A stretch of 64,000 bases of DNA from Candidatus Latescibacterota bacterium (GTDB lineage: Bacteria; Latescibacterota; UBA2968; GCA-2709665): positions 224,001 through 288,000 of the forward strand of contig OZ242180.1 of assembly GCA_965205485.1 (NCBI GenBank). Direction: 5' to 3'. How positions within the stretch are numbered: position 1 is the stretch's first letter; every line of letters begins with the position of its first letter. This document shows positions 14,911 through 14,990 of this stretch, one piece after another. The translations under genes and the position numbers were made by a program. The notes under the pieces were generated by a model. That model had not been told where the DNA came from. It did not search any database and worked only from the letters and a program-made list of their open reading frames with translations.

Positions 14911-14990
14911 CCCTTCGACACCCTTCGACAAGCTTGCTTCGACAAGCTCAGCACGAGCAGGGCAAGTGCTCAGTGAACGGCTAAGGGCAG
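14911..14990 (+). repeat. Triple-nested 23-nt TTCGACAnGCTCA hairpin units
   Basis: cccttcgaca[cccttcgacaagct[tgcttcgacaagctcagcacgag]cagggcaag]tgctcagtg. Confidence 0.85.

Follow-up and report, generated by a model that had tools for sequence, protein, structure and literature searches.

The window, a 64,000-nucleotide stretch of DNA from Candidatus Latescibacterota, contains a 23-nt hairpin unit that interrupts copies of itself. This locus raises the question of how a short repeat comes to lie, intact and in the orientation of its host, inside its own hairpin.

Structure of the nest and of its repeat unit

The first-pass annotation of the window described the region as a three-level nest. 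Its 23-nt steps parse exactly (host at 14911-14979, insert at 14921-14966, inner insert at 14935-14957), but the depth is four levels, as the 23-nt unit with its start at 14911 in turn interrupts a degenerate outer host. The whole nest occupies 14900-14987 (+), and its outermost host, split after its own nt 11, is parsed as two halves at 14900-14910 and 14980-14987 (+). Three orthologs (L025, L027, and L029) have this outermost host with one intact insert. Level 2 (14911-14979, +) is a 23-nt unit with a CCC stem and an AACG tail that is interrupted after nt 10; at the loop position it has T, and the one-insert orthologs have G. Level 3 (14921-14966, +) has a CCC/GGG stem and a CAAG tail, is also 23 nt long, and is split after nt 14, with a junction that is identical at the orthologous site of congeners G003 and G004. 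Level 4 (14935-14957, +) is an unsplit 23-nt unit with a TGC/GCA stem and a CGAG tail; on its minus strand, a hairpin with tandem G.A mismatches is preceded by a 5' tag of 4 nt. A HAD-family hydrolase gene (14175-14897, +) precedes the nest, which starts 3 nt after the stop codon of this gene, and a gene for an Lhr-type helicase (15158-19489, +), which provides genomic context only, lies downstream.

The nest was also compared with contigs from 4 of the 22 listed sequencing runs, a comparison that concerns assembled contigs rather than variation within a population. The contig from run X20, which may be the source sample of the window DNA, matches 13448-14953 with zero differences. The contig from run X1, a relative, has 48 nt across the nest where the window has 71, i.e. 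23 fewer. The nest junctions are also common to independently assembled congeners.

On its minus strand, the unit reads tag-xyz-TGAG-CTTGT-CGAA-z'y'x', which gives a short stem with two adjacent G.A mismatches and a 5-nt loop. It belongs to a dispersed REP-like hairpin family with about 180 copies in a genome (G000) that is a single contig of 5.13 Mb. There are 154 exact cores in this genome, a tighter core pattern gives 178 cores in 111 clusters genome-wide, and 10 core matches fall in the window compared with 0.31 expected. The closing 3 bp covary, as the first-pass annotation had claimed: 143 of 199 relaxed core matches in the genome close with three Watson-Crick pairs of varied sequence, most often CCC/GGG (69), CAT/ATG (48), TGC/GCA (10), and TCC/GGA (7). 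The folding energy calculated by ViennaRNA is only -0.6 to -2.5 kcal/mol for both strands, which it does not separate, so we assign the hairpin from the covariation of the stem and from the fact that tandem G.A pairs stabilise DNA hairpins. At gathering thresholds, Rfam has no match to the unit in the window. Free copies have the form GGTC-AT-TGAG-CTTGT-CGAA-AT and build inverted dimers. The unit also forms head-to-tail arrays with a 23-nt period (G000:C1:775284-775549 and 1823982-1824263), and unit arrays in other taxa have other periods, of ∼15-21 nt. At G000:C1:759230-759332 and similar places, a 23-nt unit lies within the long loop of a longer CGTC-type REP, so hosts are not limited to copies of the unit.

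Five other inserts in the window had been called as 23 nt long, and all of them read so. The insert at 1798-1820 is on the minus strand and follows host nt 8. The inserts at 1880-1902 (+; CAT/ATG stem, CAGG tail, after host nt 8) and 1909-1931 (+; after nt 14 of the same host) lie side by side in one host, neither within the other. All three are missing at the orthologous site in G010. The insert at 29635-29657 (+) has a CCC/GGG stem and an ACCA tail and follows host nt 8. The one at 29980-30002 (+; CAT/ATG stem, CAGG tail) also follows nt 8 of its host, which is itself a nt-11 insert, and it belongs to an inverted dimer with a unit at 29909-29921 (-). A second hairpin repeat, with C-rich and G-rich arms, is present at 29723-29765; hairpins of this type trail many nests genome-wide and are a component of a composite element of ∼100 bp.

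Length, orientation, and ends of the inserts

Recursive peeling of 162 regions of this genome yielded 115 inserts, 69 of 23 nt and 14 of 24 nt. The other 32 lie within 21-40 nt, and many of these are mis-parses of tandem or multiple inserts. When flanks were randomised, 3 of 486 trials peeled, none of them at 23-24 nt. The nest pattern occurs in 14 of 14 congeners, in 1 of the 7 further genomes from the family, and in 1 of 19 from the next family; as a control, the pattern was reversed and then had zero matches in those genomes. A scan of species genomes found at least 127 nest loci in, among the matches listed, Bacteroidota, Chloroflexota, Pseudomonadota, cyanobacteria, Patescibacteria, and others. 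Among the 105 simple nests from these loci, 77 have inserts of 23-25 nt (21 of 23, 41 of 24, and 15 of 25 nt). Viral contigs contain 32 further nest loci, with 15 of 29 simple nests in the 23-25-nt range. The length that the first-pass annotation had given as fixed is thus near-fixed rather than exact: 23 nt is the local value, and 24 nt is the wider mode.

If the left and right parts of the inserts are permuted among the 105 simple nests of the species genomes, the fraction at 23-25 nt has a mean of 0.39 and a maximum of 0.55 compared with 0.73 observed, a value reached by 0 of 5000 permutations; for this genome, the permuted fraction is 0.48 and the observed one is 0.88. The lengths of the left and right parts are negatively correlated (rho -0.46 and -0.54), so that they compensate and hold the total length, in agreement with the earlier view that the nests are not simple slippage. 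Because permutation never attains the observed fraction, we conclude that the insert is one piece of near-fixed length and not the product of two slips.

In this genome, 42 nests are direct and 0 are inverted, as had been claimed, and 2 putative inverted matches occur among the at least 127 loci of other taxa. Inserts land within or beside the host loop. Each has one end at the base of a stem arm and the other end 4-6 nt past the opposite arm; on the TGAG strand, these extra bases are 5' of the hairpin. The inserts therefore record their own ends, one flush with the stem and the other 4-6 nt off on the tag side. The absence of target duplication noted in the first-pass annotation holds for inserts after host nt 10, 11, and 14, but inserts after nt 8 have 1-3 nt in common with the host, which leaves that junction ambiguous. 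The 92 nests of 20-27 nt from the at least 127 loci have 80 different junction strings. In 32 of these 92 nests and in 11 of 38 nests of this genome, the inner stem is paired yet unlike that of the host on both sides. One 23-mer (CCC stem, ACCG tail) is found after host nt 8 and nt 10 here and after host nt 12 in a Prevotella locus (L125). Every insert carries an intact core, and nests reach four or more levels. A record named Candidatus Latescibacterota (L146) has nt-11, nt-8 CCC, and nt-8 CAT junctions like those of this genome. For a sister loop variant of the hairpin, nests were found in 0 of 301 genomes of one family, from which the variant itself is possibly absent.

Empty and filled sites and a linked GIY-YIG gene

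Among the congeners, the site orthologous to the focal nest lacks the element in G002, G005, G011, G013, and G014 and has one insert in G007, G008, and G010. In G006 it has an extra, different 23-nt unit after nt 8, and in G003 the nt-10 insert is present. In G004 the right-hand tails are those of G000 plus one more and the left halves are collapsed, and in G001, G009, and G012 the site contains other repeats. Comparisons of G000, G006, and G010 were kept when the core was present on both sides with 85% identity and no more than 4 gaps (34 of 85 comparisons); an earlier set, in which 123 clusters gave 73 anchored comparisons, was discarded as too noisy. No gap of at least 5 nt occurs in 11 of the 34. 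A gap of 23 nt is the commonest, seen 9 times at 8 sites (once as a tandem type), with one further whole-unit gap each of 24 and 46 nt. Among the gaps of 5-13 nt are whole inserts whose alignment was split and losses of half a nest. Relatives thus have empty and filled sites that differ by 23, 24, or 46 nt, a result that supports the first-pass interpretation. An lhr tree of the congeners did not polarise gains versus losses, because the presence of the whole element is patchy among sister genomes.

The CAT-stem, CAGG-tail insert is accompanied by a change in its host. The host loop base is A when the site is empty and T when it is filled in 4 of 4 orthologous pairs, the direction being unpolarised. 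A loop T follows 11 of 15 CAT/CAGG inserts in this genome compared with 4 of 178 intact cores, and it follows 8 of 17 in the G006 and G010 loci examined. The earlier statement that removal of an insert restores an intact unit needs qualification: peeling of some inserts leaves a host with the rare loop T instead of the common unit. The commonest free unit (CAT with an ACCA, ACCG, or AACG tail) is found in a host in 0 of 24 cases, and the CAT unit with a CAGG or CAAG tail in 16 of 20. Each insert variant mostly keeps one host position in this genus, and in two hosts a pair of inserts is placed side by side. Because the insert variant, its position, and the neighbouring host base travel together, and because the commonest free unit is never inserted, these results point to the copying of ready-made nested alleles.

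The first-pass annotation had postulated a trans-acting enzyme, and the genome does contain a nuclease gene that is linked to the unit. One of its two GIY-YIG matches is a small UPF0213-like gene with nests on both sides (G000:C1:1885700-1886002; L001:1441-1743). This gene is frameshifted by a short duplication near its start, which could reflect either a true pseudogene or an assembly error, and its two pieces match nothing in NCBIfam. An intact homolog in G005 (L054) encodes 101 amino acids and matches the Pfam GIY-YIG family (PF01541, E 1.4e-19); in NCBIfam it has only a below-cutoff match to an intron endonuclease. A sequence search of the PDB returned only two matches, UPF0213 BH0048 (1zg2, E 1e-16) and EF2693 (1ywl, E 2.7e-14), sequence relatives that the PDB lists as hypothetical proteins.

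The four closest homologs in the genomes examined (63-84% identity; G005, G012, G024, and G044) all adjoin the unit. The hairpin is on both sides of the gene in G000, G005, G012, and G044 and is seen on one side in G024, which is the sole carrier of a nest and of a close homolog among the 19 neighbouring-family genomes. Among 80 homolog loci from metagenomes, 40 carry this core, and 75 carry a general xyz-TGAG-loop-CGAA hairpin with loop variants allowed, compared with 6 of 80 after shuffling; these loci include near-duplicates, and neither they nor the congeners are independent samples. A nest is present at 2 of the 80 loci, and no homolog lies within 300-500 nt of any of 159 nest loci. With the query used, a close homolog was found in 2 of the 14 congeners, all of which have nests. 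Remoter homologs (L057, L058, L059, and L062) lie beside other mismatched-hairpin variants, based on TCGAG or TCGATA, which suggests that nuclease and repeat co-vary.

The gene and its hairpins occupy the same site in G000 and G005. In G010 the flanking repeat is present twice without the gene, in G008 a different GIY-YIG gene is found with different repeats, and only 33-39 bp are present in four others. From this comparison the gene looks mobile. The site (L422-L434) is an insertion hot spot that ranges from these 33-39 bp up to ∼1 kb and holds various repeat families or either of two different GIY-YIG genes; the ORF that bounds it opposite the downstream ORF is presumably a XerD-like recombinase. 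A second group of small GIY-YIG genes, in congeners and in the neighbouring family (L061-L072), has on its flanks a longer CGTC-type REP, likewise with a TGAG...CGAA stem, so two nuclease-repeat pairs coexist in the genus. By the C terminus characteristic of that family, we take the second-group proteins of L065, L069, and L070 to be Ssn-like.

Candidate mechanisms and known systems

We give roughly an even chance to a two-tier reading of these data, in which a REP-like hairpin and a small GIY-YIG nuclease together produce rare, nuclease-bounded capture events that are followed by frequent short gene conversion. In the first tier, the rare birth of a junction, the nuclease would cut single-stranded DNA 4-6 nt 5' of the hairpin, a step modelled on SsnA, whose cut is likewise on the 5' side of its cognate hairpin. 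Once trimmed back to the 3' base of the stem, the DNA would be a single-stranded piece of 23-25 nt that may be joined into, or copied at, a loop break of another copy on the same strand. These steps would fix the length and orientation of the inserts, the orientation through the joining of single strand into single strand. GIY-YIG nucleases are hydrolytic, so a host ligase or polymerase would have to do the joining. In the second and common tier, short-tract gene conversion would copy the nested allele by way of shared half-cores and carry neighbouring host bases along. Each fill would leave a new intact hairpin in the middle of the nest, so the process could repeat, and slippage between repeated halves would trim nests back. 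The 80 distinct junctions and the placement of one 23-mer at several host positions point to discrete pieces with enzyme-set ends. Counted against this reading are the fact that the cut position is taken from a different GIY-YIG subfamily, the frameshift of the gene here, the presence of a close homolog in so few of the nest-bearing congeners, the rarity of nests at homolog loci (2 of 80), the lack of a nearby homolog at the 159 nest loci, and the weak calculated folding of the hairpin. Judged by oligonucleotide lengths, the SsnA cut also appears to fall ∼3 nt before the 4-nt tag, farther from the stem than 4-6 nt (PMC11893778). Nuclease cleavage with templated repair, one of the options offered in the first-pass annotation, comes close to the two-tier reading. 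More tentatively, and with a probability that we place well short of even, UPF0213-like GIY-YIG proteins may be a second single-strand, hairpin-guided nuclease family beside Ssn, one that frees single-stranded hairpin pieces of 23-25 nt, which then return to the genome at breaks in sister hairpins.

The alternative that survives best is replication template switching without a nuclease, in which a stalled polymerase copies another hairpin with its flank and jumps back, and conversion spreads the resulting alleles. The nuclease gene would then account only for the abundance of the repeat. We consider this unlikely but still a serious contender: it is consistent with nests in all 14 congeners and a close homolog in 2, with the many inserts that by eye lengthen pairing into the host, and with the half-nest collapses and half-unit tandem runs, which indicate frequent polymerase slips. 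However, it leaves unexplained why the far end is fixed 4-6 nt beyond the stem over 80 junctions and why one 23-mer occupies several host positions with no host base gained or lost.

Somewhat less probable again is the proposal that an enzyme inserts the free 23-nt unit anew to make each nest, the link between variant and position arising from pairing between insert end and target. The whole-unit differences at one site among the sister genomes G000, G006, and G010, the strict orientation and length, and the tandem arrays with a 23-nt period are what such insertion would produce. This is the first-pass model in its strong form. It is not supported by the linkage of variant, position, and host base, in which a base beyond the unit differs along with the insert, by the absence of the commonest free unit from hosts, or by the few identical junctions that recur in every congener listed. 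Searches of the genome for strand-transfer enzymes (Y1_Tnp and RVT_1) also found none.

It is very unlikely that inserts of many lengths arise and that selection on RNA structure at gene ends keeps those of 23-25 nt. The focal nest does follow a stop codon closely, and a role for REPs in termination and mRNA stability has been hypothesised (PMC3733652), but at least 5 of the 14 congeners lack the element at the orthologous site, others have one to four levels there, and nests occur in both orientations. Independent duplications of the left half and of the right half by slippage are an even poorer explanation and are already largely refuted. Left-only and right-only repeats are common around nests, and the inner and outer stems are the same in many of them (only 11 of 38 here have stems that differ on both sides), but the left-plus-right sum is held far beyond permutation, the part lengths are negatively correlated, and paired inner stems foreign on both sides are present in both sets of nests. 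Assembly artefact from collapsed repeats, which the number of unit copies and the many short-read contigs that break at the unit might suggest, can be dismissed given the recurrence of identical junctions across many phyla and in 14 genomes with separate assemblies, the common tails at the G004 site, and the X20 and X1 contigs.

How REP-type hairpins multiply is still argued, and for GIY-YIG-linked repeats only cutting has been shown so far in the portion of the work available to us (PMC11893778). Because the ends of the inserts are recorded, the two-tier reading makes a sharp prediction of where a UPF0213-like nuclease cuts, and the empty and filled alleles offer a direct assay of capture versus conversion. 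If capture is correct, the unit would be a very small mobile DNA and a natural route by which short single-stranded oligonucleotides are written into a chromosome. It would be gene-less, about two helical turns long, and active in many bacterial phyla, each insertion making the next target, and an extra site-specific single-stranded DNA nuclease family would stand beside Ssn.

The system looks most like the Ssn nucleases and their NTS/SRM hairpins (SsnA, cd10448; Chenal et al. 2025, PMC11893778). SsnA cuts single-stranded DNA 5' of its hairpin, and the available text describes the cutting of incoming DNA and not the insertion of repeat into repeat (PMC11893778). Both systems have a small single-domain GIY-YIG gene (∼100 amino acids) flanked by its own oriented hairpin repeat, a dispersed high-copy repeat, and a mobile-looking hairpin-gene-hairpin layout, and the extra bases of the inserts are on the side where SsnA cuts. 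Unlike SRMs as described in that text, the unit has a short stem with tandem G.A mismatches, and 0 of 162 cores lie within a match to a published SRM pattern. Unlike Ssn, the protein has UPF0213 proteins as its nearest solved relatives, and it is 36-41% identical, over the part searched, to Ssn-like genes of the same genus and order. The system thus appears to work like Ssn/SRM but fails the SRM pattern and has a UPF0213-like protein, and we do not place it as a member.

The repeat itself resembles the CGTC-tagged REP families (Di Nocera et al. 2013, PMC3733652), which, compared by their text description rather than by the family consensus figure, share a tag, a stem that opens with AT, a 5-nt loop, and an arrangement as inverted dimers whose spacers are 30-70 nt. 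Free CAT units carry GGTC as the tag, open with AT, have a 5-nt loop, and form inverted dimers. By the same description, the CGTC REP stem is 8-9 bp with a loop of 4-5 nt, whereas that of the unit is shorter and mismatched and its tags are varied. Insertion of REP dimers in other palindromes has been reported (PMC3733652); the words "nested" and "GIY-YIG" are absent from the main text of that paper. We found no paper on UPF0213 with GIY-YIG and a repeat, and no description of a self-nesting repeat in the literature searched, which included few subscription journals and whose supplements may list the repeat. The self-nesting of a REP-like repeat is real, widespread, and apparently undescribed.

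Short hairpins, dimers, and tandem arrays near the gene for a single-strand-acting enzyme are also features of REP/REPIN systems with RAYT, an HUH Y1 transposase. Unlike those systems, this one has a GIY-YIG protein as partner and lacks a GTAG tag. A RAYT system, which the first-pass annotation had offered as an example, was rejected since Y1_Tnp (PF01797) has 0 matches in this 97%-complete genome, compared with matches in 6 of 14 control genomes; a reverse transcriptase flanked by the unit, another early candidate, fares no better (0 RVT_1 matches in the genome), and Ku likewise has 0 matches. A MITE or insertion sequence was rejected on the absence of target-site duplication after nt 10, 11, and 14, the overlap at nt 8 being only 1-3 nt.

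Free-standing and intron GIY-YIG endonucleases home by copying a filled allele onto an empty one, with co-conversion of flanking bases. The flanking base here similarly changes along with the insert (4 of 4 pairs; 11 of 15 versus 4 of 178; direction unpolarised). Unlike homing, the cargo is 23-25 nt and gene-less, the homology is ∼8-14 nt per side between non-allelic copies, and filling re-creates the target instead of destroying it.

Elsewhere in the window, contig depth is very high in two intergenic regions (∼23380-23550 and 26740-26880), and numerous contigs end there in each of the four runs, which marks further repeat families. The only Rfam match in the window is an ordinary TPP riboswitch (34025-34120) ahead of a thiamine biosynthesis cluster.
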